Shown piece after piece: positions 1 to 19,330 of a DNA stretch of 64,000 bases. The stretch is from Amphiscolops sp. MND2022. Lineage: Eukaryota. How positions within the stretch are numbered: the stretch's first letter is position 1; each line of letters opens with the position of its first letter. Under the pieces are notes generated by a model. That model did not search any database and was not told where the DNA came from. It was given only the letters and a program-made list of their open reading frames with translations. The DNA lies in contig OZ076411.1 in NCBI GenBank assembly GCA_964187785.1, forward strand, positions 34,968,001 to 35,032,000. The letters are read 5' to 3'. The translations under genes were made by a program, and so were the position numbers.

Positions 1-165
1 TAGAGGATGTTGCAGTTGACTTCTTTTTGAGGAAGTTTCAGAGCCCGATGAAATGACAGATGATGACTCCACTTTTAGTCCGTGAGAATTGAAAATTGAA
101 TTTATATCAAGAAAGTTCATTCAATTGACACTTATTGAACTTTTATTTTCTTTTATTTTTCTAAA
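1..165 (+). repeat. Dispersed repeat, copy 1 (copy 2 at ~51626-51788)
   Basis: GTTGCAGTTGA...GAAGTTTCAGAGCC...ATGACAGATGATGACTCC...GAGAATTGAAAATTGAATTT...CAATT(G/T)ACACTTATT is shared with ~51626-51788. ORFs 89..337 and 51715..51987 begin with near-identical MKIEF peptides, an artefact of the repeat. Confidence 0.85.
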
Positions 166-654
166 GTGCGTTTCCAAAAATTTTGGTAGGTTAAAACGAG
201 TCATTTTGTATTCTAGAAGGAGTTTGCTCTCTTTCCATTTTTCAATTCGCTTCAAAATTTTGTTTACCACTCATTTGTTCAACACTATTCGTTCACTCAG
301 CACAATTGGAATGAACCTGACGAAAGTGTCAATTTAGTAAACTTGTGTGCAAATGTAGTGGTATAAAACAAAACTGTTACATAAGTTTACGGAACCGAGA
401 ATGCTAATTCGATTTTGATTGGCTGCCGAAGTGGATGTAGGAAATGTTCTTCTAGTTCAGGAAATTGATTCTTTGTCGTTCGATCTTTCAATTCAACAGC
501 TTGCTAGTTTTGTTTAATTCAAGATACATTCGTTAAGCCCTTCTCTTACCTTTGTCTAATTCTAGATTCCCTAAACGTTGTCTGCTTCCTCATTCCACAA
601 TGGTTAGTTTCTTTCTTAAGAATGTTTTACATCTACAATTTGGGATACGAAGTA

Positions 655-1115
655 AAAATTTCAGTTTTAGTTGGAAAAAATTGAATATCCACTGTGAGTA
701 TAAAAAAACTGTTTTAATACACACCGCTTTGGTTTTGGTACTTACCGTGAGTAAGTTATTGTACTCGTTTTTGGTATCCACCGTGAGCAAAGTATTATCC
801 TGCATTTGTATAGAAAATTTTTGTATCCACCGTGAGTAGTGGAAAAAACTTTAGTTAGAAAAAAATTGTACACACTGTCAGCAAAAACGTTAGTTTCAGT
901 TGGAAAAATTCGAGTATCCACCGTGAGTAAAAAAACTCAGTTTTAAGAAACACCGCTTTGGTTTTGGTACTTACCGTGAGTAAATTATTGTACTCGTTTT
1001 TGGTACACACGGTGAGTAAAGTATTGTCCTGCATTTGTATAGAAATTTTTTGTATCCACCGTGAGTAGTGGAAAAATCTGAGTTAGAAAAAAAATTCTAC
1101 ACACTGTCAGCAAAA
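655..1115 (+). repeat. Two tandem ~230-bp units rich in the motif (G/T)TATCCACCGTGAG
   Basis: Units ~655-885 and ~886-1115 align (ACACCGCTTTGGTTTTGGTACTTACCGTGAGTAA...CACACTGTCAGCAAAA). Each has several CCGTGAG sub-repeats. Confidence 0.9.
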
Positions 1116-1256
1116 CTGCTCTTGAATTTTCATCCAAAATTTTTGGTTTCCCCCGAGTAGTAAAAACGAAACTGAGTTTGAACTGCCATCCTTTGAACAG
1201 GCCTGAGTGAAAAACTGTTCACAATTTGCAGAGAAACCTGGGAGTAAAATATTGTT

Positions 1257-1529
1257 ATCGAATTCGTGGGTCTTTTCTGCTACAAACCCTCCGCCCCTCC
1301 CAGAAGTTTACTCCCATCCCACTCAATTCACTAAGAAGTGAATCAATATGAAGTCAATCTTATACAACAATTCTTGTCCTAATTTTTGAAATGTTGATAG
1401 GTGTTCATCATTAAGAAGTGAATCATTAGAGAGTGAGTCAAATACCTCGATTCTTATCCTGACAAAAAATATTGGAGATACTTTTTAAAGAATAGAGTGG
1501 GGGAATAACAGAAAAGACCCGAATTCGAT
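1257..1529. mobile_element. Putative MITE (~270 bp) with ~22-bp imperfect terminal inverted repeats
   Basis: ATCGAATTCGTGGGTCTTTTCTG (1257-1279) versus CAGAAAAGACCCGAATTCGAT (1509-1529). Non-coding interior; no clear TSD. Confidence 0.45.
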
Positions 1530-1783
1530 CTCTATCTCGTTTTAAGGGAAAGCAATCGAATACCCATGTCAAAGACTAATTTTTTTTGATACTCAACTGT
1601 TGTCAGATGAAATCAGAAAGCAATGATACGATATGAAGAAAAGATTAAAAGTTGTTGTTAACATAGACAATCAAAATAAATTTCGCGATAGGAAGATCAA
1701 AATTTTTACATATTATTTGAAAAATTAGGTATACTCAGTTTTTCTGAGATAACATAGGCTGTAAAAAGTCGACTGTAAAAAGC

Positions 1784-1856
1784 CGACACGATAGAGATTC
1801 GAACCCACGATCTTTGGCTTCATAGTCTAGTTGCTTACCACTCGGCCATAGCGCGT
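1784..1856 (-). pseudogene. tRNA-derived pseudogene or SINE head
   Basis: Reverse strand reads GCGCTA-TGGCCGAGTGG(A box)-TAAGCAACTAGACTATGAAGCCAAAGATCGTG-GGTTCGAATC(B box)-TCTATCGTGTC. Anticodon and acceptor stems are mispaired. It is followed by a repeated T-run tail (TTTTTACAGTCGACTTTTTACAGCC). Confidence 0.75.
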
Positions 1857-2118
1857 TGTGATTTGTTTGTTTTTATTTACCCATATTGTTAAACAACCGA
1901 GATATTTATCTCCATTTTAAAATGATGGCGTTCTAAATTCATTTGTGGTTTGGCATGTTCTGTTTTTTTTTGCTTGTTCGCTTCCTCTTTTTTCTGATTG
2001 GAAAAACAGGTCTTTATTTGAAATGGGAGGTTGTAATATCTTTTAGCGGTTTGAAATTTTGGCGTTTACATGTAAGACGCTTCGAGGATAAACTATAATG
2101 TTGTTTTTGTTTCTACAG

Positions 2119-5107
2119 ACTGAATACAGCTGCCCCAACTGTTCGTACAAGTCGAACCGCCGCACGAATTTTGAGAGGCACCAAAAAACCTGCGGTACAA
2201 AGCAGCCGCAAAACAAAGCCTGTCCCCGTTGCAAGAGGGTCTTCGCCACCCTTGTAACGCTCAAGCGGCACATCGAGAAAGCGAGGTACTGCACGACAGA
2301 CATACCCCAAAATGAAAGAAAGTACAGTAAGTAGATCAACTATGTCAACTATTTGCGGCTCTTCTCGTTCCCCCCACCACATTTTTCATGGAAAAAATAG
2401 TGAAAAACTTATATCACAAAGACATGAATACAAACCAGTAAAGCCTCAAATTTATATTTTTTCTTAGTGTGACAGTTTAGGATTTAGATACAAATAAATA
2501 CGAACATAATACTAACATAAAACGAACATAAGTATAGTCTGCAAGTTTTATATAATCTGCGTTCGTTAGTTTACATTTTATTCAATAAAATTTTATAGGA
2601 ACTGCCAACCCCAGCAAGAAATATCCTGGCACATCCTGTAGTGAGGAATTTGCCCGGAGTGACTCCCTACAGAGACACCTGGAACGATTTCCCCTCCACA
2701 AAGAAAGCGACATGGCAATGACGAGCGAGCCTAGTCGACGGGCGTACGAAGGGTCAAGTCTCTTCGTAAAGTACCTAGAGGACATGCCGCTATCAGAGGA
2801 GCCGTGGAACTGCTGCAGGTGGGAAAATCAGCAAGAAGACGAAAACGGCATGGTCTTGAAAGCACTCTCTCGTGGCCAGCCGATATTATGGAAGAACGGG
2901 GCTATGAACTCGCGAGGTTTGAAGCCCCCAGTTTTGCCCGCTGAGGACTTCGTCCACCAAGTGGAGTTCTTGCTGCAGCACTTGGCTAATCCTGCAGCGA
3001 AGCTTGCTGCAAAGTCATCACGGCTGCCACAAGAACAACAGGTGATCATATCCCGCCATTCTTTGTATTTTTCGAATTTCACAAACTTCATTCAAGTATA
3101 GCGTTTTACCATTAGTGATAAAATTTATTGTATACGTTGAATCAAAACATATTGAGATTTAGTATCCACTAAGTCATCGTTGGCAGTGGATTTCACTGTA
3201 AGTTATCTAAACATTGGTAAAGCAATTTCAAAGGAGTATGCTTGAAATATTTGTTTTTGAATTTTAGGTCAGGTCTTTAACAGTGAGAGAGTACCTGGAC
3301 GAGCAGCGAGCCCTCAGCAGCACCCACGGGAACATTTCCTGTCAATGTCATTGACATTGCACTCGAACGGAATGTAAGTTTTTTATCATATCTTGGAAGG
3401 GCTCATATTGGAAAAAATTACTCTTTGAATTTGATGTCTTTACAGTGCCAAAAGTCAGTGAAATACATGATGCACCCTTCTATTGTTCAAATTTTTAGCA
3501 ACTAAATGGATGTTGAAACTGGCGACCACTGTAAGGAGTCTTTGTTCTGAAACCGTTTGCTGAGGTGTTGTCGTTTTGGTTTAGTTTTTCCAAGTACCGG
3601 ATTTCGTCAGACACTGTGCGGTCGATCATCTGGCAGATGAGTGTGTGGATGCAGCAGGGCACTTCACCGAGGCTACATCCAATTATTTGCTGGTCTCAAA
3701 TGACCAGTGTCTCACGCCGTGGCATGTCGACTTCTCCAGCACGACTGCCTTTTATACTGTCGCCCGAGGACAGAAGACCTTCTGGCTGGTGGAGCCGACA
3801 AGCTCAAATTTGCAGCTCTTTGAGGAGTGGAGCAATATCCCCACAAAAAGGTAAATGTACTCAGATCATGCACTGAAAACATACTCATCTCAAAGTCATC
3901 ATTTTGCGAAGAACACATTATCAATCATGCACATGATTCAAAATCATTGAACCAGTTGTTTCGTTTAAATTTATACTAATTTGTTTTTATTTAGACCAAC
4001 TTCCTTCGGGAACCTGAAGGCCCTGACAGGTGGGGTCCACAAACTTGTGGTGGAAGCAGGCGACATCCTCGTTTTGCCTGCACGCTGGCCACATATAGTG
4101 GCAACAAAGGGAGACGCCATTGCTTTTGCCTCCAACTTCCTCGCTGTCACACATTTCCCTCTGATTGTGGACAGTCACCTCAACGCCAGTCAGCAGGAAA
4201 TAGACGACGAAGAGGTTTTTCCCGGAGTTGTTCGTGTGTATGCTGTGCTACAGTTTAAAATACGACAACTCCAGCGGAAACTCAATTCCCTGAGAGGATC
4301 ATGGAGCCCCCTCTTCTCCAGCCCACAACTGACTCTTCTGAAAGAGCAGATCAGCAGTGAGCTCGACGCCATCAAAATGGTAATCAATGTTTGTTAATTA
4401 TGAATGGTAACTGATAATGTAGAAAATGTAGATAATGTAGAAAAGAACTAATCTCTTCCACGGACTGGGTTGTAAACTACGGATTTTAAGGGTTCTCGTT
4501 TCGAACTGCCTAACAATTTAAACGTATTTTTTCAAATGTAATTGTAATTTTGCACATTTCTCATTGAATTCGCTCTATTCATCATTGTCAATGGCTTTTG
4601 TTACCAGGTGTATCCAGCTTTCAATTTGAATCAGCTGGGAGTGAGGGGTCCGGAGAAGCCCTATTGCGACCCAAAAGGGCCAGTGTACGCCTTCACAGGG
4701 ACTGTGAAGGAAGTCCGAATTGGGCCTACACACCAGGCCGAAATCCCCGAAATGTCACAGAAGGGAAGGAAACGTGACCGCAGCATCCTTCAACAGGAGG
4801 AGGACGTCTTCGATATAGGTTAGAAGCAGCAATTGTTGATGTCATAATTTTCGAAATCTTGATGTTAAACCTTTCATAGATAATTGACCACTAGTCTATC
4901 GGAAAACCTTGAAATTGTATCTGTTGAAAGAAAATCACAAACCCCATCGTTATCATCTGTTTAGACACCCTGCCGCCTCTCATTGCAAGCTGCGACACTT
5001 TCAAAGAGTTTTTGAGCAAGAAAATTGCTCTCTACAAGAAGGCCTTTCCAACGAGCCTACATTGCAAAAGAAGCCTCTGCAAAAGAAAAATTCACTCTGG
5101 TAAATAA
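2119..5107 (+). pseudogene. Spliced gene: C2H2/C2HC zinc fingers + KDM2/KDM7(PHF8)-type JmjC demethylase + ELM2-like motif; apparently disrupted
   Basis: Inferred GT-AG exons 2119-2326, 2599-3041, 3268-3373, 3446-3530, 3595-3850, 3995-4379, 4608-4818, 4965-5107. Motifs: CPNC..RH, CPRC..RH, VNVIDIAL, NYLLVS..TPWHVDFSSTTAFYTVARGQKTFWLVEPT..NLQLFEEW, LVLPARWPHIVAT..AFASNFL, EVRIGPTHQAEIP. One frame change near 3310-3325 and an in-frame TAA at 3503-3505 in my model. Confidence 0.8.
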
Positions 5108-5199
5108 AGAAGCTGCCTGGAGCAAACTTTTATAGTTTATTGTTTTTTATCAAACTTTTAAGTTTAGAATTGAACAGAATTTAGTTTAGAATTTACTCC

Positions 5200-5640
5200 T
5201 TTATATTGGTTTGCAAATGTTCGAGCATTAGTTTGTAGAACTCACTTTTAATGTATTGAAATACGTCTGTCGATTCCGCATATCGCCTTTCGCAGGATGA
5301 AGTATTTTTTCCAGAATAATGGAATCCACTACAATAGAAACTTGAGTCTATTTAGAACTAATAATTTACTGAATATACCCCTTTTGGATTGGTTTGCAAA
5401 TGTTTAAGAATTTGTTTGTGGAATCCACTGTCAATGTATTGGTATATGTTAGTCAATTCCGCATATCGCTTTTCGCAGGATGAAGAATACTTTCCAGAAT
5501 AGTGGAATCCACTGCAATATAAATTTGTGTCTATTTAGAACTAATGCTTTACTGAATGTACCCCTTTTGTATTGGTTTGCAAATGTTTAAGCATTTGTTT
5601 GTGGAATCCACTGTCAATGTATTGGTATACGTTAGTCAAA
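5200..5640 (+). repeat. ~2.5 tandem ~182-bp units between convergent genes
   Basis: TTGGTTTGCAAATGTTT recurs at ~5207, ~5389 and ~5572. The units share CCGCATATCGC.TTTCGCAGGATGAAG and GGAATCCACT. Confidence 0.85.
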
Positions 5641-5967
5641 TCCACTTACTGTTTCTGGCTAGATGCATTTAGGTTTAGTAGAACGTTTGTACCAAAAATC
5701 TGAATGTGCAAAAACCAAAGTAACAAAGCATTATTACGTATCGGGAACAGTTCTAAATAATAATTTGAAATTATCTACTGGGGAGAATTTTTCAAGAAGT
5801 AGTCGCAAGTGAAAAAAGTTTTTTGACATCATTTATTGTAACAAGGACAATATTACTGTAACAATCGAATTAAGAGAAAGAATTTTATCAGTGCAATACC
5901 AACAAAAATACCATTGAATTTATTTAGGGTAACAAAACAGACGCTTTTTGAAGATGTATTTGCACAT

Positions 5968-7308
5968 TTACTCACGATGGATACCAAAATTACTACCCCT
6001 ATTGGTCAACAAAGTATTCAATGTGCGCATGTTGAATGTTTTGCCTGAAGCTTTGTCGATGGTCTCCATTTTTTTGTAGTGGCCTTCAGTTGTAGTTATG
6101 TGGCACCTGAATGAGAACATCATAAAGTCGCGATGTTCCGTGAATTTCAAAGTCTTGATCAATGTTGCAGGCTCATCTTCAAGCCTATCTGGAATGATGT
6201 CCCAGTTCTGGCCCAATATAAAATCTAAGCTGTTGTAGCTTCCCAAGTTTCCCGTTTCAACTTCTATTGAAAATTTCACGTTTTCTCTGCTTGAGTCCGA
6301 CTTGAACCCACAGACACGTTTTGTGAGCTCTGTTGCAGGTACCATGTTTGTCACAGTTGATGACTTCTTGAACGACAAACCAACACATCTCTTAATTGCA
6401 GAAAAGACTGCAAACGTTCTATCAACATCATTATCAAGAGTGAAATAATTGATTTCCACGTTTTTTAAATAGTCCGAGATCTTTAACGAACAATTGTTTA
6501 CTGGCATCCTAAGTTCGCAGTCTTCGTCGTCCATGGATACCATTATTGCAAATGGTTTCAACTTCTGTGCACTGTAGTACAAATCCTCCACTTTGAATTC
6601 CATTCCAGACAAAGTAATAATGGATCCTTTTTGACAAATTCCATTGACACATGGTACATAGCTTAATTTGACATCAACATCGGTTTGCGGTATCAATGCT
6701 GAAAAGTCTATTTCTGGTATTTGTGTTTTAGGTCTTTTCTGTTTTGGTTCTTCCCGATGTTCCTGCTTCGTCTCTTCAGCTTCCTCGTCGTCTTCTGCTT
6801 TCTCATCGTGAACATGGGTATCTTCCACTGAGTTCTTCAAATAGCAATAGGGGATAAATCTATACATTTTGTCCATCTCCACGACACACTCATGGCTAAA
6901 TGGGTCATTCGTCGAAATAGTTCCCGTTTTGATTTTTCCATGGGAATCAATAAAACAATGCCCCACACACTCACAATCGGGTAGCCAGAATGTCACAGGC
7001 TCGTTTTTTTGCAGTCGGTGTGGGTTATACGACAGGGGTTTAGAACGCTTTTTCGACAAGACTGGTTGCGAATGTCGTGCTTTTCTAATGTTCAACCTGT
7101 TTGGGTCAGGACGCAATTCTAGGGGAATTTCAATTTTCTGCAGACGATTGTTCCAGTCGATCCATTGGATTTTCAGAGACCAATCACTTATGAACGCTAT
7201 TATCTTCGCAGACTCCCAAATATAGGTTTCAGGGTCGAGGATTTGGACAATTTCATTTAATTTAAAAGTTTGCAGAAGCATTGTAGTGGAGATTAAAGTT
7301 GACTTCAA
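5968..7308 (-). CDS. Uncharacterised 446-aa intronless protein; possible Tudor/chromo-barrel-like N-terminus
   Basis: Uninterrupted 1341-bp ORF in AT-rich DNA (non-ATG start in the track). N-terminal IVQILDPETYIWESAKIIAFISDWSLKIQWIDW has the beta-rich aromatic pattern of royal-family domains. Acidic/basic linker EDDEEAEETKQEHREEPKQKRPK. Confidence 0.7.
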   Translation of the reverse strand: MKSTLISTTMLLQTFKLNEIVQILDPETYIWESAKIIAFISDWSLKIQWIDWNNRLQKIEIPLELRPDPNRLNIRKARHSQPVLSKKRSKPLSYNPHRLQKNEPVTFWLPDCECVGHCFIDSHGKIKTGTISTNDPFSHECVVEMDKMYRFIPYCYLKNSVEDTHVHDEKAEDDEEAEETKQEHREEPKQKRPKTQIPEIDFSALIPQTDVDVKLSYVPCVNGICQKGSIITLSGMEFKVEDLYYSAQKLKPFAIMVSMDDEDCELRMPVNNCSLKISDYLKNVEINYFTLDNDVDRTFAVFSAIKRCVGLSFKKSSTVTNMVPATELTKRVCGFKSDSSRENVKFSIEVETGNLGSYNSLDFILGQNWDIIPDRLEDEPATLIKTLKFTEHRDFMMFSFRCHITTTEGHYKKMETIDKASGKTFNMRTLNTLLTNRGSNFGIHRE

Positions 7309-7704
7309 CAGAAAGAAATACTTGAGCTTACTCTGAGCATAAACTGTTCAAATTTGTGCAAAGTGATTACCAGGTGTCAACACATAAACTGCGCGAAAAA
7401 GAGGCTAATTTTACGGTGATGATCCTAAAAGAAGGTGTCATTCCGTTTTGAGCGCTCAATAAAAGAAATTATTACTAGCAATTAGTTTTTAAACTCATCT
7501 CGTGAGTGTTAATATATTTGAATAGACATTTGAGTCCCGAAAGGACTCAACCACCGTAATAAACCTGATAACACTTACTGGTTGAAATAATTAATTTAGT
7601 CACTGTGAAGTGCAATGGGTGAAATCGAGTCTCTGCTAATTATGAAAACGACGCTTTATCGAAAAAATTAATTTCAAAATTGTCATTTTTTTTACATCAT
7701 AATT

Positions 7705-9268
7705 TTGATTCATTCAGCGAAATCCACTCTCAAGATTTGTTCTCCTAGTTTCATGAATACTTCTACCATGCCTGAAAAAATTTCAAATCTAGAATCGACA
7801 CGCTTGTGTCCATCCCAGACTTCTACACCTGTGCAACAGTCACATCGACGATCTACCGACTGGAATGTGCCGCCAGATTTCCTCAGTAATGCATCCATGT
7901 TTTGTCCGCCATCTTATTCGCCAATTTCATCGGCCCCCGAGGAGGGTTTCTTCAGTGCAACTAGAATGATGAACTCTGATGGGGTCGAGCACTTGATTGA
8001 ACATATGCCCACAGAAGCTCTAGAACATTTACTGCAGAATTCCTTTGCCGCCTGAGAACCCACTACAACAGGACCCCCTGTCACAGAATTCACTGCCTCA
8101 CCAGAACTTGCCACCCCAGAGCAATGTGCCCGTGACCAATGTGCCACCCCAGCTCAATGAGCCACCCGGGAAGCGTCCATTTGACTCCCAGTGCAGTGAG
8201 GATAATTCAAGTAACAGTCAATCCAAGTGTGCGAAAGTTACTCACTTTGACAACAACATGTACGAAAGAACGTTGGCTAAACATGTCCAGGCATCGAAAG
8301 AAAATGTGGGACTAGTACAAAAAGCTAAGTTGGAACTCTTTCGATGCATAATTACAACCCTGTTCATGTATGCGGTACCACCTATGCTTGAAAGTTCCAT
8401 CCGGAATGTCTCGGTACACTCAGTTGTGCAAATCGTGATGGATCACGAAGAAGATTCACTGAGCGACGCCTTCAATCTCTGTGTGGAACACACAATTGGA
8501 TCATCGGAACGAACAATTCACAAAGTATCCGGAAGTCTTGTTGAAGCATTGAAAGTATATTTTACACAAATTCGGCCATTTTTTGTTACCAATCACACCA
8601 AGTTAGCCATTGTTCGATACGAAAAGGCCGACAAACGTCCAATTAATACAGAGTTATTCTTTGTGAATTCAATTGGTAAAACGGACTTCCGCGTTAAATC
8701 TGTTGTAGATCTTTTCATTTCAAGCAAAAAAGCAGAAACAAAAGATCAATATACATTGAAAGGTAAAGTCGCGGAACTGATGCTCCTTTCCAATGACCCA
8801 TGCTTCAAAATCACCAAGCTGAAACATGCAGTGAATTTGGTTCTTTCGAATGTTGAAGGTTTCGACAAAGACGATGTGAGAAACGCTGTTCGCGCCCGCC
8901 AAGACCAGCAAAGGTACACTCGCCAGTCAGCCAGGGCCTTGCTATACTTTGAACACGTTTCTGGGAAAGTTGCTATTAACTGTCTTGAGTCAAGAGTGGC
9001 GGCATTTTTTCAGCGACAAAAGTGGACTTCGCTGGAGGATAAGAACCAGGACGTGAAAAAAGTGACAACGCAGTTATTGATTCTCTCTAACAACCAGTCA
9101 ATTAGAAAATCTTCGCAGGTACCTGAGAGCAGTGGAATTCGGTATGCTGGACTTGCTCATAATTTGCCATATGAAGAACAAATTTTGTTGTCGCGAACAA
9201 ACGATGTGAGACGCAGCTGTGGCCTGGAATCTGTTTGGCCAAAATGTCAAAATTTGGGAGATGTGTGA
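7705..9268 (+). pseudogene. Low-complexity N-terminus plus degenerate tyrosine-recombinase-like domain (ORFs 7705..8055 and 8045..9268 joined by a 1-nt shift)
   Basis: Removing one T at ~8043-8045 gives LLQNS-LPPENPLQQDPLSQNSLP, continuing a QNSLP repeat. LKVYFTQIRPFFV...ELFFVNSIGK and ITKLKHAVN...QQRYT have the spacing of eukaryotic YR-like domains, but the canonical catalytic residues are mostly missing. Confidence 0.5.
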
Positions 9269-9672
9269 TTGCCACACAGAAATTTTCAAAGGACGACATT
9301 TTGATGGATTACCATGGCGAGGTGTATTTAAACATGTCATTGAGCCAAGTCCTCGAGATAGAAGGTGTGGAGCAAGAGTTCGTTCTGGAGGTTAAAAGTG
9401 GCGCCTCTAGAAGAATAATTGATGCCTCCAAAGAGATTTGCCCCCTTCACCCAAATATTCGCTGCCCTGGACGTCTTGCCAACCACTCGCAGTTGAAATC
9501 AAACGGCGCCAATATGAAGCCAACAGTGATCGAATTGTTTCAAAATGGCAAAAAGATTGTAGTGTTCCGAGCTACACGTGATATTCTACCATTTGAGCAG
9601 CTCCGTTTTGATTACAATGACCCCATTGCCAATCAACTTTTCCATGAAGATTCTCAACCGATGTTTGACTGA
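9235..9672 (+). CDS. SET-domain lysine methyltransferase, PR-Set7/SETD8(KMT5A)-like; probably the C-terminus of the preceding ORF
   Basis: GRCVIATQKFSKDDILMDYHG...IIDAS...GRLANHS...RATRDILPFEQLRFDYND parallels SETD8 GRGVIATKQFSRGDFVVEYHG...CVDAT...GRLINHS...IASRDIAAGEELLYDYGD. Confidence 0.9.
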   Translation: MAKMSKFGRCVIATQKFSKDDILMDYHGEVYLNMSLSQVLEIEGVEQEFVLEVKSGASRRIIDASKEICPLHPNIRCPGRLANHSQLKSNGANMKPTVIELFQNGKKIVVFRATRDILPFEQLRFDYNDPIANQLFHEDSQPMFD

Positions 9673-9899
9673 TGGAATCGTCAGAAAACTCCGTTTACAA
9701 AACACGTTTCTTTGTTGTGTATTCAATTTTTCACTACTTTCGTTATAATTTCACTTGTATGTAAACACTGAATGCTACAAGTACAAATGTTTGTTTTTCG
9801 TAATATCGAAACAAAACACCGTAAATTACATTTTCCCTTGCAACGTCTTCTTCACTCGAATTTAGATTTCCATTCATCATTCGGCTTGTAATTCATTTT

Positions 9900-10170
9900 G
9901 AAATTTTGGTATCCGCCTTGAGGTATTTGAAAAATGGAAACTAGTTGTACCTAAAATACACTAAAATACACGAAAGAGCTGTGTGTGGAATTTGATGTAG
10001 AAATGATAAGGTCTCCGTTGCAGTCAGCAGTATGCTTGAAGTGAGTTTTCCGGAACCAAATTTTGGTATCCACCATGAGGTAAATGAAAAATGAAAGCTA
10101 GTTATACCTAAAGGTATGTGTGTATAACTAGGTAACTAGCAGGAACTGTGTGTGAAATTTTGATGCCCAC
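9900..10170 (+). repeat. ~157-bp tandem duplication carrying TTTTGGTATCC(A/G)CC.TGAG
   Basis: 9904-9955 and 10061-10112 align (TTTTGGTATCC.CC.TGAGGTA...GAAAAATG.AA.CTAGTT.TACCTA). Confidence 0.8.
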
Positions 10171-10414
10171 TATGATTCAATCAAAGTATGAAAAAATAAC
10201 AGCCAAACTAAAGCGGTAAAACGGTGCGTGATTGCGGTAAAAACTCACTGGGAATAATTTGTCAAAAGAAGAAATTCTGAATCCTTCTTTTTGTGACACT
10301 TGCTGATTCTGAAAAAGTTTCTCATTTCAAAACTGAACTCGTGAAGGAAGGGCACTGAAGTACATGAACTCCACTTTTTTCGATGGTTGATAGTTTTTGT
10401 GAGTTGGTATTGAA

Positions 10415-10750
10415 ATAATTCAGTGAAATAATTAGGTGAAGAAATTCAGTGAAATAATTCAGTGAAATAATTCAGTGAAATAGTTCAGAGAAATAACTCA
10501 GTGAAATAATTCAGCGAATTCCACTAAATACTGCAGTGGAAATAATTAGGTGAAATAATTCAGTGAATTCCACTAAAACACTGCAGTGTGAGTTGGTATT
10601 CAAATAATTCAGTGAAATAATTAGGTGAAATAATTCAGTGAAAAAATTCAGTGGAATAATTCAGTGAAATATTTCAGTGAAAAAATTCAGTGAATTCCAC
10701 TAAATACTGCAGTGGAAATAATTAGGTGAAATAATTCAGTGAATTCCACT
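10415..10750 (+). repeat. Minisatellite of ~13-bp GAAATAATTCAGT units with higher-order duplication
   Basis: Roughly 20 variant copies. The block GAATTCCACTAAATACTGCAGTGGAAATAATTAGGTGAAATAATTCAGTGAATTCCACTAAAACACTGCAGTG occurs at ~10516 and ~10692. Confidence 0.9.
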
Positions 10751-10754
10751 AAAA

Positions 10755-11035
10755 CACTGCAGTGGAGTCCACTGCAGCTGATAGTGGATTCCACTGCGGC
10801 CATCGGTGGAGTCCACTGCAGCGTTCAGTGGAATCCACGACAGTGTTTTGTGGAATCCACTGCAAGATCCGAATGTTTAAGGTATTTGATAGTGGAATCC
10901 AATGCTTTGCAGCGAAATTCGCTGCAGAAAAATCGCCAAAAGAGTGGAATCGACTGCAACGTAATAGCATTTGTTAGTGGATTACGCTGCACGCTTTCCA
11001 AAACTGCCGTCCAGCGAAATCCACTGCAAATTTTC
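10755..11035. repeat. Cluster of palindromes CTGCAGTGGA-n-TCCACTGCAG and variants
   Basis: Perfect 10-bp arms at 10757-10777, with further degenerate GTGGAnTCCAC copies up to ~11035. Confidence 0.8.
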
Positions 11036-11189
11036 AAAATACCCACTTTTGGCACTGTAATGTTGAAAACATTTAACATGCCCGTATTCATCTCGATATC
11101 ATTATCACTGCAGAACAAGTTCAAATGAAAAAACTATTGAAGAAACGCCACGAAATTTCAACTAATGAAGGTGTTGCTAAAAACGACCT

Positions 11190-13790
11190 ACGTATTCGAA
11201 ATTTGGGGCTTTTCCATGGACCCAATGAAATTAAAGTCAACTGGCTACAAACCACCATCCTATCTACGCTGAATAATGCCCATATTCTAATATCTGCTCC
11301 ACAACGTCATAGGCTGGACTCTACCTTCATCAAACGCAACCTGTCCTAATATTTGTAAGCGGCACCTGGCTTTACAACGATATCGAAGACGATGAGTTGT
11401 TTCCACATTCGAATTATAGACTAATTGATAGAAATGACAGAAAATCTGGTGAACATGGTGGTATATTAGTTGTCAAGGATAAAAACTCCTGCTTAAAAGT
11501 CATCCACAAAATTCACTACGGCGATTTCAGCTCTTCTTGTTTACTTCAACATGGATACAAATACGTCGCTTTTATTCTTATTTACACCCAACAACATCCG
11601 ACTATCGTATTGCTCTCGATCAATTGCTGTTCTCTTTTGAGTTTCATTTGGAGCAAATACGAAGGAACGCACTATCAAATCAGCTCAAAAGTTTTGTACT
11701 AAGTGAATTCAACCTACCTACAGCCTTCGACAATTTCTCCAATTATGAACATTCAATCTTCACACGTTTTTTGAACAAAAAGATTTTGCGCAGATGGTCG
11801 AAAATCCTACACATAAGTCAGGTAGCACTTTGGACTAATCTTCACTAACTCAACAGCCTTCAACACCTATCCCTCGTCTTCGTTATACTCCGATCATTAT
11901 GCAGTCCTTGGCGAGTTCGCTCGCCTTAATGACCCTCAAAATAATAGTCACTATCCTCGACCGTTCTCAAGTAGCAGTCTTAACAAGGAATTGTTCAATG
12001 CCTTATCAGACAGTCTTTACAAAAGAAAGTACTGCAACCCACAGCCCGGTTTCCTTAACCATTTCACAAGCAACATTCTATCTTGCCTTCCCCTCTGTTG
12101 CTCCAAGAAGTCTAAACGACGCATGGAATTGCCTTCTTATTATTCATCTCACTCAATACATATTTGTAATAAAATCAGAACGGTAAAATCCAAACTGAAC
12201 ATGTCGCCTTATCTCTTGGCGAAGCTGGAAAATGATCTCAACGTCAGTGTAACCCTAGACAGAACATTGATGTTCAACATTATACACACTAACTTACATC
12301 AACTCTGCTTTTATATATCTTCAAAGATTCAGGAAAAATGCAGATATTCCCTTAACTGTCTCCTACAAAGGAAAAATGCTCACTCTGATAATAGCATTGC
12401 AAAATTATTCATCAAATACTTTGAGTTTTTAAATCTGCAACTCAGTCCTTCTTAGTACCGACAGTTAAAGAGTCAATTTTCCTTGCAGACATCGTCATCC
12501 TTCCTTCAACCGTTTCTGAACTTCTGGGTAAATGCAAATTCTCATTGAGTGCTGACCCTATTCCACCTTTCGTGTACCATGACTGTGCTGAAGTTATTGC
12601 ATCACTAGTTTGTCAAATTTAAAACGACGTGATAAAATGCTGTACATGGCCTGATGAATGAAAATGTAAATTCATCACACACATTCTTCAATCTGGAAAA
12701 TCCAATGACGTTTAAAACTATCGCCCAATCAGTATCCTACCTCCTTTATCTCTCATTCTGGAGAAAATATTGTTCATGTTCTTGTACCCGAAATTATCAA
12801 CCCTCCTAAAAAGCTGTCAACATGGTTGTAGAAAACGACGCTTGATTAGTACGCAGTTGTTCACGTATTTAGAATCACTATACAGTATTGCTGACCGGAA
12901 CATGCATTCTGGTTCTATCTACTTCGATTTTTCCAAAGCATTCGACACTGTAGCTATTGATATTCTGCTACAAAAACTTTCCATTTTTGGTCTAGATGAT
13001 GGTTTTCCATACAATACTCATCATATTTACAAAATTGAGTGCAAAAGATAAAAGTCAGAAATAGCGTCTCGTCTGCAAAACACATTAGCAGTGGTGTTCC
13101 ACAAGGTAGCATTTTAGGTCCTCTGCTGTTCCTGATATATAATAACAATTTACCAGAACATATTAATTCTCAAGTCTACTTCTTTGCTAACGACCCCAAA
13201 ATACTGGGTAACGTTCCGAAAGTTTTTAATGCTGTCATTGGCCACTTTACCGACTGGAGTGGCACAAACAAGCTGAGTATCAACCTTCCAAAGTGTCAGT
13301 ACTTTGTTCAAGCTCTGTTTCCAAACAGCTCAACTGTCTTGGGTCCAAAATCGAAGAGTCTTCACAAGTTAAATATCTTGGTCTTTATATCTCCAAAAAT
13401 TTAACCTGGGACAAACACTTGAAGACGTAATTGGACGCATTTTACCGGAATTTTCACTTCATCATACGTACAGTTCTCTTCTTGGTCAACATCAATGTTA
13501 GGAAATCTTTAATCAACTCCTGCGTTATTGAATTGTTATTGTATTGTTTTCACTGTTGGTCACCTTCAATCATTTCACTGAAGAAATTATCTAGTATGCA
13601 TCGAATGTGTCGGTCTTCATGACAACCATCAGCGGCTCCAGATTTGCAATATCCTACCAATATCATTCTAAGTTATGTGCAGAGACGCAATGTTGTTCTA
13701 CGAACAATATAATGGTCTTTACGATCTACAGTTTTATGACTATTTCACTGTTTCAGCTGAAAGACGGCGTATCTACGTGACGCCTACCTA
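11190..13790 (+). mobile_element. Decayed non-LTR retrotransposon ORF2 (CR1/L2/Jockey-group), APE + RT
   Basis: APE remnants (FPHSNYRLIDRNDRKSGEHGGILV). RT remnants (QHGCRKRR..STQL, IYFDFSKAFDTV, SGVPQGSILGPLLFLIY, YFFANDPK for YADD). Many stops and frameshifts. Confidence 0.9.
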
Positions 13791-14519: not shown

Positions 14520-16660
14520 TTCAATGGAAATTCTAACGAGCAGTATGGAAGGCGAGATAATGTCAGAATATTCGGAGTGAAAGATGAAGCCGTCGAGTAT
14601 GTCTACCAAAAACTGTTGATGTTCTTATGGAAAAGAGACACCAACATTCAAAAACAGACATCAGCATATGTCACCGGGTACCTAGGAGAAACTTGAAAAA
14701 AATGAAGGGCGTCCTACTGTTGTGAAGTCAGACAATAGAAAAAAGGGCAGATGGCGAATAAAAAACCCTTGAGAGATTGTGAAGAGAAAAGCGATATCAA
14801 CGACATCACTTTGTTGAGGGTGCGATTAGCCAGAGCGTTGAGATTGCGAGTCGATATGTTAAATGAGGAAGTAGTCATTTATGAAACTGGTGATCCCAAA
14901 AATACTTTTGAGAATCTGTTCAAGTTATATGAATAGAATCCAGATTTCAAATATTCTGTTTGCAAGACGAGTTTACATTTTTGTTAGGGGGCCTTCTCAC
15001 TTATACACTGAAACCTAAAAAAATAACATCGTAAACTTGAAAAAAATTGGAAAAGTGCTACATTCGATTGGATTCTGCACCTAAAAGAGATATCAATCAA
15101 CATCTATTTTGAGGAATTGGAAACATAGGTAGAATCTTTTGGACTCAATAAACCATTCCTTGTTTGCTGCTCCGAAATGTGGATGGTTGAATCATCCGCT
15201 GAAGACCTTTATGTCTTAGATAATTATGCACCAATGAAATTTCAACCAGGAAAAACTAGAAATGATGGTGTGGCAATGTACTTGCATGCATCATTCTCTT
15301 TCGAGATAATAGAACTTGACAATAATTGTACCAATCAAAAAAGGGAAAAAAATATTGTAATTTGTTTATACAACACCCCTCGGTCAATAAACAATACTTC
15401 TTGGAGCACTTCCATGTTCATCTTGGCGGTCCTATGAGCAACTGTTTTTTTGTTGTTGACATGAATATCGATGTACTTGAAACATCAGCGACTGGTATTA
15501 GGTATTTGAACTCATTGAAATTGAATGGGTGTTATCAAAGGGTGGTATAAAAGAACCTACGCGTGTAGCAAGCTTGCAAAGTACAAGTTACAAAGTTTGC
15601 AAAATCGAATAAAACTTGGTTTGAAAAAGATGTAAAGGAAAGCAGATTCCGACGAATCTTCGCATTTGACAGATACAAACGATATCGCACTTCGTCTAAC
15701 AGAACTAAATACACGAAAAAGAGAAATCGTGTCTGTGAACTCCTGTGGTCGAAGAAACGATAATACTTTGATGATCGACTTACCTCCAATAATTCGCGAT
15801 ACTTCTCAGTTTTACGCTTTTCAGCCTCGATGGCGGTGGTTCCCGGGTTGCATAAGGAGCCTTCATTCAGGCCACAGGGTGCAAGAGCATTCACAACCGT
15901 CGGATCTTCAATTCGACTGAACGCTTTTTAAATGAATTGAATCGACTAATCGGTAGAAAGAAGAAGAACCGTAACCTCATAATTGCGGACAATGAAAACA
16001 AATTGAACAGAGATGATTTTGCCGTATCAAACTTGTTCAATGAGAAGTTCGTTCCAAAAACCAAAGCTTTAGCAGCTTGAATTCCTACTGTTCCATTCAC
16101 TACTGAAGGATTCGCTAATACTGAGAAGTCTCGTTTTTTCTATCCAACAGACTTCCAGGAAATTTGTAAAACTTTACGAACCCTAGGAACCATAAAGCTG
16201 CCGAATTAGATGGGCTGCTGACGTTTTAAAGGTTAGTCTTGATGTGATTCGTGATACACTGACCTACCTTGTCAACGAATCATTATCAAGTGGTGTCTTT
16301 GTGAAAGCTGCAAAAGTGGTTCCAGTCTTTAAGTCTGGGAGAAAGAGCAATTGTGAGAAGAATAGAACCATATCACCTTTATGAGATCTCGAGCAACTGT
16401 ATAAATTCAAGCAAGTAATCAATCGTTTCAATTACTGTCAATTCGGATTCAGATCAGAAATGAGTACACTGCATGCACTAACGGACATAACGGAACTGAT
16501 CCGGAAGAATACCCATCTTGACGGATCCTGTGTTAATAGATCTAAGTAAAGCGTTCGATAAAAAAATCATGAAGTCTTAATTTTCAAATTGGAAAGCTAT
16601 GGTGTGAGAATTATTTGCTTAGAATTGTTCAGGTTGCGTCTCAATGATCGTTCCCAATGC
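14520..16660 (+). mobile_element. Second decayed CR1-group LINE (ORF1 remnant, APE, 5' part of RT)
   Basis: ORF1-type EQYGRRDNVRIFGVK. APE remnants (CCSEMWM, PGKTRNDGVAMY, DMNIDVL, KEPTRV). RT remnants (KAAKVVPVFKSG, QFGFRSEMSTLHAL, DLSKAFD, KLESYGVR). Truncated at ~16660. Confidence 0.85.
15575..15915 (-). mobile_element. 3' fragment of a restriction-like-endonuclease (CRE-type) non-LTR element nested in the LINE
   Basis: Minus strand reads DPTVVNALAPCGLNEGSLCNPGTTAIEAEKRKTEKYRELL, matching the CRE-clade pattern D.T..DTLA.S....PG.AA..AE..K..KY..L. It interrupts the host LINE between APE and RT. Confidence 0.6.
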
Positions 16661-19330
16661 GTTGCTGTTTTTCATATGGTAAAAGTGGATAATGAACAAA
16701 AAAATGGACCGATCGTGTTGAACTGACGAACTGAAGCGAGTTAACATTTGAGTCCCTTTGAATAGGAAAATGACGTAACTGCGAGCAGTACGCCCGAATT
16801 CCTCTTTGTATTTGTTGGAAATTGCTTCTAGTGTGAGCCCTTCCTTCTTCTTCTCTCCCTTTTCTGCATCTGTTTTAGCCTTACAAGCAATGTCGAGCCG
16901 AGAGTCCAGTTCAGACCGTGACAGGAAGTCGGTTATGGTCAGAGCCTTGACGTCGGGGATCGAAAGTTTCAGGACTCCTTGATGATTGTTCTCGGCAGGA
17001 AGATTTGCGGGCCGAATACGTCTCCTTCCCACATTGAAGAGGAATTGACTCAGCTCACGATACACATGAAACCCTGGGTCGCGGCGCTGATTAAAATTTA
17101 AAGTGAAGCTGGTGGTGTAATCACGGACTAATCGATAAAATAGCTCCAAGCGGGTCGGAAAGACATCGTCATACACCTTGAACCAGTCCAGACTTTGCGG
17201 CTGTGACAACAGGAAACCCGCTTGATACCTTAAGTCCAAGAAACTAGATCATGTAGGAACATGCAAGATTTGTGAAACTGAACGCTAGACTCAAGGTCCT
17301 ACCGTCTACATGTCTGAATAGTAAAAAAAAGTCGTAGGGCCCTAGTGATTAAAGTGAATTCTACCTGTTTCCGGACTCCCTGCTTTTCAAGTGTAGCAGA
17401 GTTTTGCATGAAGTAATTGGTGACCTTTGTCCAGTGCTTCAGCAAATCCTTGCATAGCGTAGGCACACTGTTTATTTCCAACTGGCAAGTTCTAAGGGTA
17501 TACAATACAAACATGTTACAAAGGGAAGGAAGTTAGAGAAAACCAGTGATCATATAAAGTAGCAATAACCTTAGATAATTCTGGTGAAAGCATCACCCAT
17601 TTCAGCTCAAGACTTGACCCGAAGAATACGACACAATGAAGAACACTGCGAAGAAGTCTATACGCCCGAAGACACTAGAACTCATTTTGTGCATTAGGGT
17701 CCGCTTTTGAAGTTCTTCAAAGCATGGCGGATTTTGAACTGCATGTTGGCCGTATTGGCTTTTGTCCATTAGCTGTACAGTGTGAGATGTACTCCCGGTT
17801 CCTCTGACGATTTGCGGACCTGTTGAGATGGTACCGATCACGTGAGAAATCAAGGTAACTTCTGCTTGGCTCTGCCGTTGGGTCCTCCCAGTCCTCTTAA
17901 GGAATGCTCTGCACAGTTGGTCACCTTGCCAGAATCGTATGAACACGAGTAGGAAAATTCCATCACAGGCGAACTCCAATGCACATTCATTGTTTGCGAC
18001 CACGTGGTGTCCGACGTCATTGAGGATTGATTCTCTGATGAGGAAGACTTGTCGGCTCCAGCAGTGAACACATCATAGAAGGGGAGCTTTTCCCCAATGT
18101 CAATCAATTCCACATCCTTGAATTTCGGCAGCTCAAGGGCCAATTGATAGGGGGTAAGGAGCTTGCCGTCTCCGCCTCGGAGTTGGGGAACGCGGGCCTT
18201 TGTGATAGGGTCAATTTTATACTGATACTCGTACCTCCAGCGTTGGTCCTTTCTGAAATGCTTTTCGGTAGAGTGTCGGAGTATCTCCCGGGCCCCTTTG
18301 GAACAAACAGAAATGCTTGCCTTGCAGATCTGGCAGTAAAACTTGTACTTATTCCGTTTGGGATCTACAGGGCCAGAAACAAAGGTTCAAGTCAACTCCA
18401 TGCCTTTTAAGTAGGCTCCATGCCTTCCTTCATAAACTTACATGTCCTCGACTTATTCTTGCGCGTTCAAGAACCTCTATTTGATGTAGTTTTAAACCGT
18501 CCGTTTGGGTTTCTTACCCGTTGTTGGCAATCTTGCACGGCTTCTTGCTTCAATGCGGCTCGTGTTTGTGCTCCGGGACTGTCCGCATTGAAGGCAGCGT
18601 AAGCCGACCTGGGTCCATTTAACTACAAGTGGGCTGGGACAAAGACTGGGGCGGATCTATCATTACACCTGGCTCTGAGTAATTATACCAATAACCGAAG
18701 CTTCCATTGTAATCATTACTTCTTATAGCGCCGCTAGTGTCACTACAACCTCCAGATGACGAAACTTGATTACGACCTCCGATTGTGACTACGGAAAACC
18801 CTCTCCTCGCAGAACCCTTCATGTTGGTCTTACTTCCAACTGGCTCAGTAGTCAAGGACGAACGGATAGCACGATGGATCAAATTTTCAAACATGTCATA
18901 CGGTACTCGGGCTGTTTCATCTGTCACAACTTGTAACACAGTGGACATTTGGGAGTCTGTGGAAGCTATGGTCTGGTGTCAAGGCGGTAGACGGAAGGAA
19001 TTGCTGGCTGCAAAATACGCGTCAATTAGAGCGCGACTTCCGCCTCCTAAAGGTGTAATCCTAGGTTCAGCAGAAGGGTTAACAAGTGTGCCCACACTGG
19101 ACTGGTCGCTTGCTTCTGGAAGCAGACAGTGGATGGTGGGGTTCAAAGCATCCGCCAAGGTTGAACCGACATGCTGTCCAGATACATACTCAGAAACGTG
19201 TCCTGCTTCAGAATAACCGTAATTTTCAAATGGTTGTAAAATGGTTACCTGGTTGTCTTCCTCTTGAGCTGTTAAAGACTTCTTGTTTGATGTTTAGAGT
19301 TAGTTCTTTTGGGAGCACATAAGAAGTCGA
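16660..19330 (-). mobile_element. Unclassified coding repeat (family Y), copy 1, degenerate
   Basis: Peptides align with 56600-59300: FNQRRDPGFHVYRELSQF vs LNNKPDAGFYVFRQLSRF; PTLCKDLLKHWTKV vs PHLCHELLTHWTEV; LPP.HQTIASTDSQMSTVLQVVTDE vs LPKDHTTVAFREDQMYNLIRVACDE. No RT, integrase or transposase motif recognised. Confidence 0.65.

Follow-up and report, generated by a model that had tools for sequence, protein, structure and literature searches.

Organization of the Element

The window analyzed here is a stretch of 64,000 nucleotides from Amphiscolops sp. MND2022 (contig OZ076411.1, positions 34,968,001–35,032,000), and its left part is occupied by a DNA transposon, here called family A. The element comprises a transposase gene, a C2H2 zinc-finger gene with a JmjC domain, an orphan gene, and a gene in which a tyrosine recombinase (YR)-like domain is fused to a SET domain (YR-SET). 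The whole family-A element was 16,611 bp long (G000:C3:34962452-34979062); 5,549 bp of it lay to the left of the window, in the neighboring stretch L069. A sequence-only reading of the window had described a mobile cassette of ~9.5 kb with three genes. These three genes were all present and mobile, and they occupied the right two-thirds of the element, but the real unit has four genes, the additional one being the transposase gene left of the window (Table 1).

Table 1. Features of the family-A element and its insertion site (L069 is the left neighbor of the window; other positions are those of the window)
Feature	Position	Strand	Remark
Left terminal inverted repeat	L069:2452-2472		Preceded by TT duplication
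Left subterminal motif cluster	about L069:2547-2865
RAG1/Transib-fold DDE transposase gene with BRCT region	about L069:4194-7203	+	Outside the window
Partner 183-bp repeat block	about L069:7361-7757		Left of the window
In-window part of the element	1..11062	.	By homology to other copies; transposase fold predicted on family-B protein, 48% identical
Two 229-bp tandem units	651..1115	+	Internal, upstream of JmjC gene; 7 motifs of the sequence-only reading (735-1065)
C2H2x3-JmjC (KDM2/7-like)-ELM2-like gene	2119..5140 (about)	+	Pfam zf-C2H2, JmjC/cupin and ELM2 pieces
Inferred JmjC exons	2119-2326, 2599-3041, 3268-3373, 3585-3850, 3995-4379, 4608-4818, 4965 onward		First exon and ATG not placed
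183-bp repeat block, 2.4 copies	5189..5643	.	Inverted partner left of the window; the pair flanks the JmjC gene
Orphan gene	5968..7281	-	Open in the window copy; N-terminal ~60 aa weakly Tudor/Agenet-like
Degenerate YR-fold domain fused to SETD8-like SET	7753..9672	+	Broken near 8037 and 9195
Two 55-bp repeats	9901..10112	+	Motif of the sequence-only reading; internal, 950 bp inside the true end
Right subterminal repeats (13-bp, 22-bp and 176-bp arrays)	10398..11025	.	With GTGGA(A/T)TCCACT
Right terminal inverted repeat, 21 bp	11042..11062	-
TT target-site duplication	11063..11064	+	Inside LINE-like (long interspersed nuclear element) host repeat

Ten close copies were retrieved from the 1.07-Gb assembly, and nine of them were extended for end mapping and compared with the window copy, which was 93–98% identical to nine other family-A copies. 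The alignment with the ten copies overran both of the ends proposed earlier and stopped sharply at 11062, and the homology covered the complete span from L069:2452 instead of ~9.5 kb. The terminal inverted repeats (TIRs) of family A were CATTACAGTG, and the 21-bp TIR CATTAC(A/T)GTGCCAAAAGTGGG started all nine extended copies as well as the window copy, in which it was slightly altered. The ends were mapped for families A, B, I, and G, the last three with TIRs related to that of family A; the stretches compared for lineages C, D, and H stopped short of the ends.

A 2-bp target-site duplication (TSD) of varied sequence flanked 18 of the 20 copies with two ends (families A, B, G, and I), and the remaining two had a 3-bp duplication and none, respectively. 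When the pairing of flanks was shuffled, the mean was 2.5, and none of 20,000 shuffles reached 18. Copy C7b (rearranged and not extended) and copies B_C3a, B_C3b, and I_C3 (one end absent) were omitted from these pairs. The empty site was recovered too: in six of seven paralogous LINE loci both flanks were contiguous without the element, with a single TT in five. The mobility predicted for the cassette was thus borne out by dispersed copies with different flanks and by an empty site. The element has the TIRs, the TSD with its empty site, and the DDE transposase that define a TIR cut-and-paste DDE transposon, and its identity as a cut-and-paste DNA transposon is near certain.

The family-A end had 275 exact matches in the genome, compared with none for a control. 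Short pairs of family-A ends lying 0.2–2.5 kb apart were observed as well (e.g., G000:C1:5002016-5002245, C1:12576915-12577368, and C1:40843794-40844008), and these are probably non-autonomous derivatives (miniature inverted-repeat transposable elements).

Transposase

The transposase gene was about 1,000 codons long, and in the window copy it had suffered four 1-bp deletions and lost its start codon. Its core had at least 150 matches in the genome. Sequence searches against Pfam, PHROGs, and PDB put no name on the transposase, the orphan, or the YR-like domain; for the transposase they returned only a weak BRCT match, and the Pfam matches listed for 25 aligned members included no transposase family. 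No usable match was obtained from the ESM Atlas, and all 35 relatives that the protein collection yielded at E ≤ 0.001 were without a name.

The structure was predicted for the family-B protein, with a predicted local distance difference test (pLDDT) score of 60.7. All Foldseek matches listed down to rank 32 were RAG1, HzTransib, or BbRAGL (best E 2.3e-4), and these three were matched ahead of Hermes and the P element. With VIA-align, residues 98–610 of this model matched RAG1 (Z 11.3, 395 aligned residues, root-mean-square deviation [rmsd] 5.8), and residues 669–812 formed a C-terminal BRCT region (Z up to 11.9, 93 aligned, rmsd 2.2). The D, D, and E acidic motifs were conserved across the aligned relatives. 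We read the transposase as a divergent RAG1/CMCT-related lineage that we leave unassigned to a named superfamily.

At L069:6440-6480, where an A-run separates the region of the transposase core from that of the BRCT tail, the reading frame was broken. This break was common to nine of ten family-A copies, and the relative P0010 reads through this site. Family A may have a BRCT-less transposase, or it may use ribosomal frameshifting or a helper copy.

JmjC Gene

The zinc-finger-JmjC gene claimed by the sequence-only reading was confirmed as a spliced gene on the forward strand, with Pfam matches to zf-C2H2 and JmjC/cupin. Its exon model was built from the reading frame, GT-AG sites, and the length match to family B, not from transcripts; it was open over at least 585 amino acids (aa) in three of nine aligned family-A copies, and in the window copy a 5-bp deletion near 3309 shifted the frame. 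A model with an extra exon at 3446-3530 was rejected, as it contained a stop in all copies. A TIR-like sequence was also observed at 3439-3460, within the JmjC intron of the family-A copies checked.

The closest PDB matches of the JmjC exon were KDM2A (5e-11) and PHF8 (3e-10), which were about equally near, and the H-x-D...H iron ligands were kept in nine of nine lineages. On sequence and iron ligands the product is a predicted demethylase of the KDM2/KDM7 type. The genome search with this exon gave at least 150 matches; 48 of the 150 listed belonged to family A, with 71–100% identity. A canonical host KDM2/7 gene was found separately at G000:C4:53.02 Mb. It was the sole JHD match in the genome search and only 34–43% identical to the JmjC copies of the element, in agreement with the earlier view that the element's gene is not the host orthologue.

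YR-SET Gene

Two changes interrupted the YR-SET gene of the window copy: near 8037 it had lost 20 bp, and near 9195 it had gained 5 bp; other copies were open, with a frame of 680 aa. Together with the JmjC frameshift, these breaks agreed with the partly decayed appearance noted earlier for this copy. The SET domain was recognized by Pfam (E 9.5e-10), and a profile search gave 503 matches at E ≤ 0.001, many of them via SET alone. In the structure predicted from 59 sequences (pLDDT 91.5), residues 311–473 matched human SET8 (Z 16.9, 149 aligned, rmsd 3.1). Residues 1–175 matched XerH, XerD, XerA, and an integrase (Z 7.8–9.3; XerH Z 9.3, 126 aligned, rmsd 4.1; XerD Z 8.2). The match stopped at XerD residue 237, which we take to precede the region with H-x-x-R, His, and Tyr (XerD numbering). 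The YR domain also aligned with that of other YR-SET-like proteins (HH probability 80%, E 1.3e-5; reversed control E 0.75), but the R-R, His, and Tyr positions of those proteins were replaced in the element, and the first catalytic Arg position, placed by motif, was Glu or Asp in 23 of 27 rows. The YR-like-SET gene was thus confirmed in its fold and its SET domain, while the YR catalytic residues were absent. The predicted structure argues that the YR fold is real and its catalysis probably lost, and the domain may still bind DNA.

In the SET domain, the equivalents of Y245 (29/30 rows), N298 (26/27), H299 (21/27), and Y336 (22/24) were kept. At the Phe/Tyr switch, the SETD8 Tyr334 position, Phe was found in seven of eight lineages (17 of 26 rows), as in the structure of the SET8 Y334F mutant. 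A Phe at this switch of SET8 allows dimethylation. Modeling places the domain nearest to the SETD8 fold with SAM (S-adenosylmethionine)-binding and catalytic residues, and in seven of eight lineages it lacks the Tyr of a mono-methylase. The proposed pairing of an H4K20me1 writer with its eraser was not upheld, given this Phe and a JmjC domain about equally near KDM2A and PHF8.

Four YR-SET-like proteins from other records (P0115, P0179, P0184, and P0187) appear to keep the recombinase catalytic motifs and may mark a Crypton-like donor family. P0115, P0179, and P0184 share with the element's gene the YR-linker-SET layout and a C-x-x-H-P insert in SET.

Orphan Gene

The open reading frame (ORF) described as a 446-aa orphan was present on the reverse strand, but its length was 437 aa from the first ATG and 459 aa from stop to stop. 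It had at least 97 matches in the genome. At its N-terminus, F6 and W21 were invariant in eight rows, and the protein could at most be taken as a lead toward a Tudor-like methyl-lysine reader.

Lineages, Gene Order, and Selection

Relatives of the element occurred in over a hundred places in the genome. Nine lineages were sampled (A, B, I, C, D, G, H, E, and F), whose transposases were 30–88% identical. All four genes were found in seven of them (A, B, I, C, D, G, and H), and five gene orders were observed: transposase+ JmjC+ orphan- SET+ in A; JmjC+ transposase- orphan- SET+ in B and I; JmjC+ orphan- SET+ transposase+ in C and D; JmjC+ SET+ transposase- orphan+ in G; and orphan- SET+ transposase+ JmjC+ in H. 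The trees of the four genes agreed on the groups (B,I) and (C,D) and on the union of B, I, C, and D, for which the support was 61, 94, 56, and 87, modest in two of the trees. The copies of lineage H (L110-L112, L107-L109, and L100/L101/L106), 99% identical among themselves, extended over more than 25 kb without their ends being reached.

Outside this genome, nine metagenome contigs of 1.1–7.4 kb encoded the transposase with 33–50% identity. The orphan adjoined it in two of the nine, and neither JmjC nor SET was found on any of these short contigs.

For fixed differences between two subfamilies of B, the ratio of nonsynonymous to synonymous substitutions (dN/dS) was 0.26 for the transposase, 0.07 for the orphan, 0.25 for YR-SET, and 0.20 for JmjC; between C and D the corresponding values were 0.30, 0.28, 0.24, and 0.26. 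Every pooled between-subfamily ratio was significant (p<2e-4), and some single exons were not. Changes private to single family-A copies had dN/dS values of 0.82–0.94 and included stops (orphan, YR-SET, and transposase). The cargo is under purifying selection akin to that on the transposase, and it decays neutrally after insertion. That the cargo is kept along the transposing lineage and decays once inserted argues against both host domestication and passive hitchhiking.

CpG transitions were without excess (40/6560 versus 186/30781). This suggested that silencing here does not act through germline CpG methylation, and this lack of CpG hypermutation makes histone marks a plausible battleground between the element and its host.

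Internal Repeats and Motifs

The three genes had been thought to lie within terminal blocks sharing a motif in direct orientation. This motif was indeed enriched, with 10 matches within three mismatches at 735-10079 against 0.08 expected by chance, but the blocks are internal and one copy, at 5971, was reversed. Exact matches to its 14-base core numbered 183 in the genome, and each of the 100 listed lay within 10 kb of a family-A orphan gene; the motif is therefore specific to the element and does not come from an unrelated abundant repeat. A near-palindrome of family A had 24 occurrences in the window copy, grouped toward its two ends and in the spaces between genes, and none in the other 53 kb of the window. 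The enriched internal motifs differed by lineage: one belonged to A, one was common to B, I, and C, one belonged to G, and one to H.

Inverted internal repeat blocks flanked single genes in family A and in family B (copy L079/L051/L052). Such blocks could explain the shuffled gene orders through recombination, and no inversion polymorphism was seen among the aligned family-A copies.

Proposed Role of the Cargo Genes

We lean toward the view that the predicted demethylase, the predicted methyltransferase, and the possible reader serve the transposon at its own chromatin and keep it expressed and mobile. The transposase would bind the TIRs, excise the element, and insert it. Both enzymes would be brought to the lineage-specific repeated motifs that lie between the genes and close to the ends, the JmjC protein by its C2H2 fingers and the SET protein by its dead recombinase fold. 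JmjC would then remove a methyl mark of a repressive or restrictive kind (KDM2/7-type substrates), SET would write H4K20-type methylation, probably beyond mono-methyl given the Phe at the switch, and the orphan may read the mark written by SET. The overall action would resemble VANDAL/VANC anti-silencing, but with enzymes. The ends with their TSDs, the empty site, the four genes with their folds and catalytic motifs, and the purifying selection on them are shown by the data; what concerns substrates and targeting is inference at every step. A fuller version can be put forward only tentatively, and we would sooner doubt it than adopt it: an unnamed lineage of RAG1-related transposons would carry a self-contained writer/eraser/reader toolkit aimed at its lineage-specific internal repeats and would thereby set the chromatin state of its own locus, and its writer would come from a Crypton-like YR-SET element whose recombinase has turned into a DNA-binding anchor.

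Several points weigh against this use of the cargo on the element's own chromatin. In the one stretch sampled for E and the one for F, only one and two of the four genes, respectively, lay within 20 kb. Lineage H was placed differently in the JmjC tree, which implies some swapping of cargo. Two short family-B JmjC exons had dN/dS values of 0.50 and 0.59 and were not significant alone. The model of the transposase was mediocre (pLDDT as above) and taken from family B. For the orphan, the matches of one lineage to Agenet (E 0.007) and to the Tudor domain of PHF20 (E 0.06–0.3) and that of the profile (no better than E 0.39) were all below significance, and the earlier call of a Tudor reader had nothing beyond such sub-threshold matches behind it. 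H4K20 methylation can be repressive, and the net effect might then be self-restraint. Subterminal repeats in CACTA-type elements can be plain binding sites of the transposase.

Four other explanations were considered. The first is that the cargo steers the repair of DNA breaks and not transcription: SET would write H4K20me2 close to sites of excision or insertion, damage chromatin would be recognized by the Tudor-like protein and the BRCT region, and JmjC would adjust H3K36me2, favoring end joining. H4K20me2, 53BP1, and H3K36me2 are linked to end joining, and the BRCT domain on the transposase, the SETD8-like SET with Phe at its switch, and the best Tudor matches (PHF20-type, below significance) are all compatible with it. 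However, the C2H2 fingers, the ELM2-like piece, and the family-specific motifs fit the targeting of the element's own promoters better, and family A spread recently although nine of its ten copies are broken between the core and the BRCT tail. We regard break repair as unlikely.

It is distinctly unlikely that the main targets of the enzymes are proteins other than histones (the transposase, one another, or checkpoint proteins of the host) or that the enzymes serve genome-wide in trans as effectors. SETD8-family enzymes methylate non-histone proteins, and viral SET proteins exist; both enzymes here, however, are fused to predicted DNA-binding modules, which points to chromatin. We hold it very unlikely that the cargo, instead of releasing the element, keeps it in check through self-silencing and so spares the host damage, or that it is of benefit to the host. 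Purifying selection proves use and not direction, and H4K20 methylation is often repressive, but the neutral decay after insertion indicates that the host does not preserve the copies and that selection acts along the transposing lineage.

The model of the sequence-only reading, a Crypton-like or virus-derived element of ~9.5 kb moved by a tyrosine recombinase between direct-repeat ends, accounts for the YR fold before SET and its alignment with YR-SET-like proteins, but it is scarcely tenable: the true ends, which lie 16.6 kb from each other, are TIRs flanked by TSDs, a DDE transposase is present, the catalytic Arg, His, and Tyr positions are replaced and the structural match ends before them, Cryptons lack TIRs (PMC3212892, available portion), and no transposase relatives were found in viral contigs. 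With its YR catalytic residues absent, the element is no Crypton. On the viral side, the YR-SET DNA had no match among phage records, and the significant matches of a viral fold search were SET domains or unnamed entries. No capsid, polymerase, or packaging genes were recognized among the long ORFs of complete copies, most of which were not scanned against virion profiles.

Comparison with Known Transposons

EnSpm/CACTA elements are characterized by a CACTA-like terminus, a short TSD, and subterminal repeats. The present element is similar in its CATTA terminus, its 2-bp TSD, and the motif clusters at both ends. In the published comparisons below, statements refer to the portions of the cited papers that are available.

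The CMCT clade comprises EnSpm/CACTA, Mirage, Chapaev, Transib, Plavaka, ESTA, as well as Lanisha (PMC12730594). The element resembles it in its 5'-CA..TG-3' ends, a TSD within 2–5 bp, a RAG1-like DDE transposase, and subterminal repeats, but it lacks C(2)C and H(3-4)H in the canonical spacing (PMC12730594): in the relevant span of the transposase, the conserved Cys/His residues lay at 298, 331, 336, 341, 483, 493, 552, and 554, none of them spaced C-x2-C or H-x3/4-H. It further differs in its C-terminal BRCT region, in having no Pfam or PDB sequence match, in its three chromatin cargo genes, and in its size of 16–19 kb (over 25 kb in lineage H). The element works like a CMCT member and is structurally related to the clade, and we did not file it as a canonical member.

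Transib has a 5-bp TSD and an RSS-like TIR with a CACAATG heptamer at the terminus (PMC1131882), and its TSDs are reported to be labile, with 3-bp and TA duplications in some elements (bioRxiv 10.64898/2026.08.26.747230). The top structural matches of the transposase were RAG1, HzTransib, and BbRAGL, and the TIR holds an internal ACAGTG. However, the TSD of the element is 2 bp and sequence-unspecific instead of 5 bp, its terminus is CATTA (the termini read CATTAC) and not CACAATG (PMC1131882), and no RAG2-like gene was seen in it. With its BRCT tail and its 2-bp footprint, this divergent relative of RAG1 bears on the history of the Transib/RAG and CACTA group.

SET methyltransferase genes are known as cargo of DNA transposons from HarbingerS and oomycete MuDR (PMC12730594), like the element in this respect; in contrast, these belong to other transposase superfamilies, and the SET of the element is fused to a dead YR domain and accompanied by JmjC and the orphan. 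In fungi, the cargo of transposons carrying TET/JBP has been proposed to counter silencing (PMC12730594), and the VANC anti-silencing proteins of Arabidopsis VANDAL target family-specific tandem motifs inside the element (PMC5735166). The likeness lies in epigenetic modifiers encoded by a transposon, with a role against silencing that has been shown or proposed. The difference is that those systems have a single cargo gene and act on DNA methylation (PMC12730594; PMC5735166), whereas the present element carries a predicted histone writer together with a predicted eraser and shows no CpG hypermutation. Cryptons have no TIRs, possess short terminal direct repeats, and need R-H-R-Y in their YR (PMC3212892). 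The element shares the YR fold with them and is set apart by TIRs, TSDs, lost catalytic residues, and a DDE carrier. That a YR can reside inside a DDE transposon has a precedent in MarCry-1_FO (PMC3212892).

No transposon with JmjC plus SET was found in the literature outside Repbase and subscription journals, where an entry may already exist. The available portion of PMC11071296 contains nothing on SET or JmjC cargo, and that of PMC9406493 no cargo case. Published anti-silencing transposons have one cargo gene (VANC, TET/JBP, or SET); here a predicted demethylase, a predicted methyltransferase, and a candidate reader travel together. The trio is retained across transposases only 30% identical and across five gene orders, under selection like that on the transposase, and it makes testable the long-standing question of whether a transposon rewrites the histone marks that it bears. 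Since every lineage has a motif of its own together with predicted DNA-binding enzymes, swaps between lineages can test specificity, and these motif-enzyme pairs might yield compact sequence-directed chromatin editors.

Surroundings of the Element

The element split a LINE-like host repeat into L069:1500-2451 on the left and window positions 11063-13400 on the right. Its naming follows motifs that we take to be a PHD-bearing ORF1 on the left and endonuclease and reverse-transcriptase fragments on the right. Pieces of another DNA transposon-like family with a zinc-finger-like N-terminus were located at 16600-18400 and 58600-59400. Between 20000 and 44000, a strong G/C skew ran across decayed Gypsy-like retrotransposon sequence on the minus strand, the integrase region of which was tandemly duplicated.

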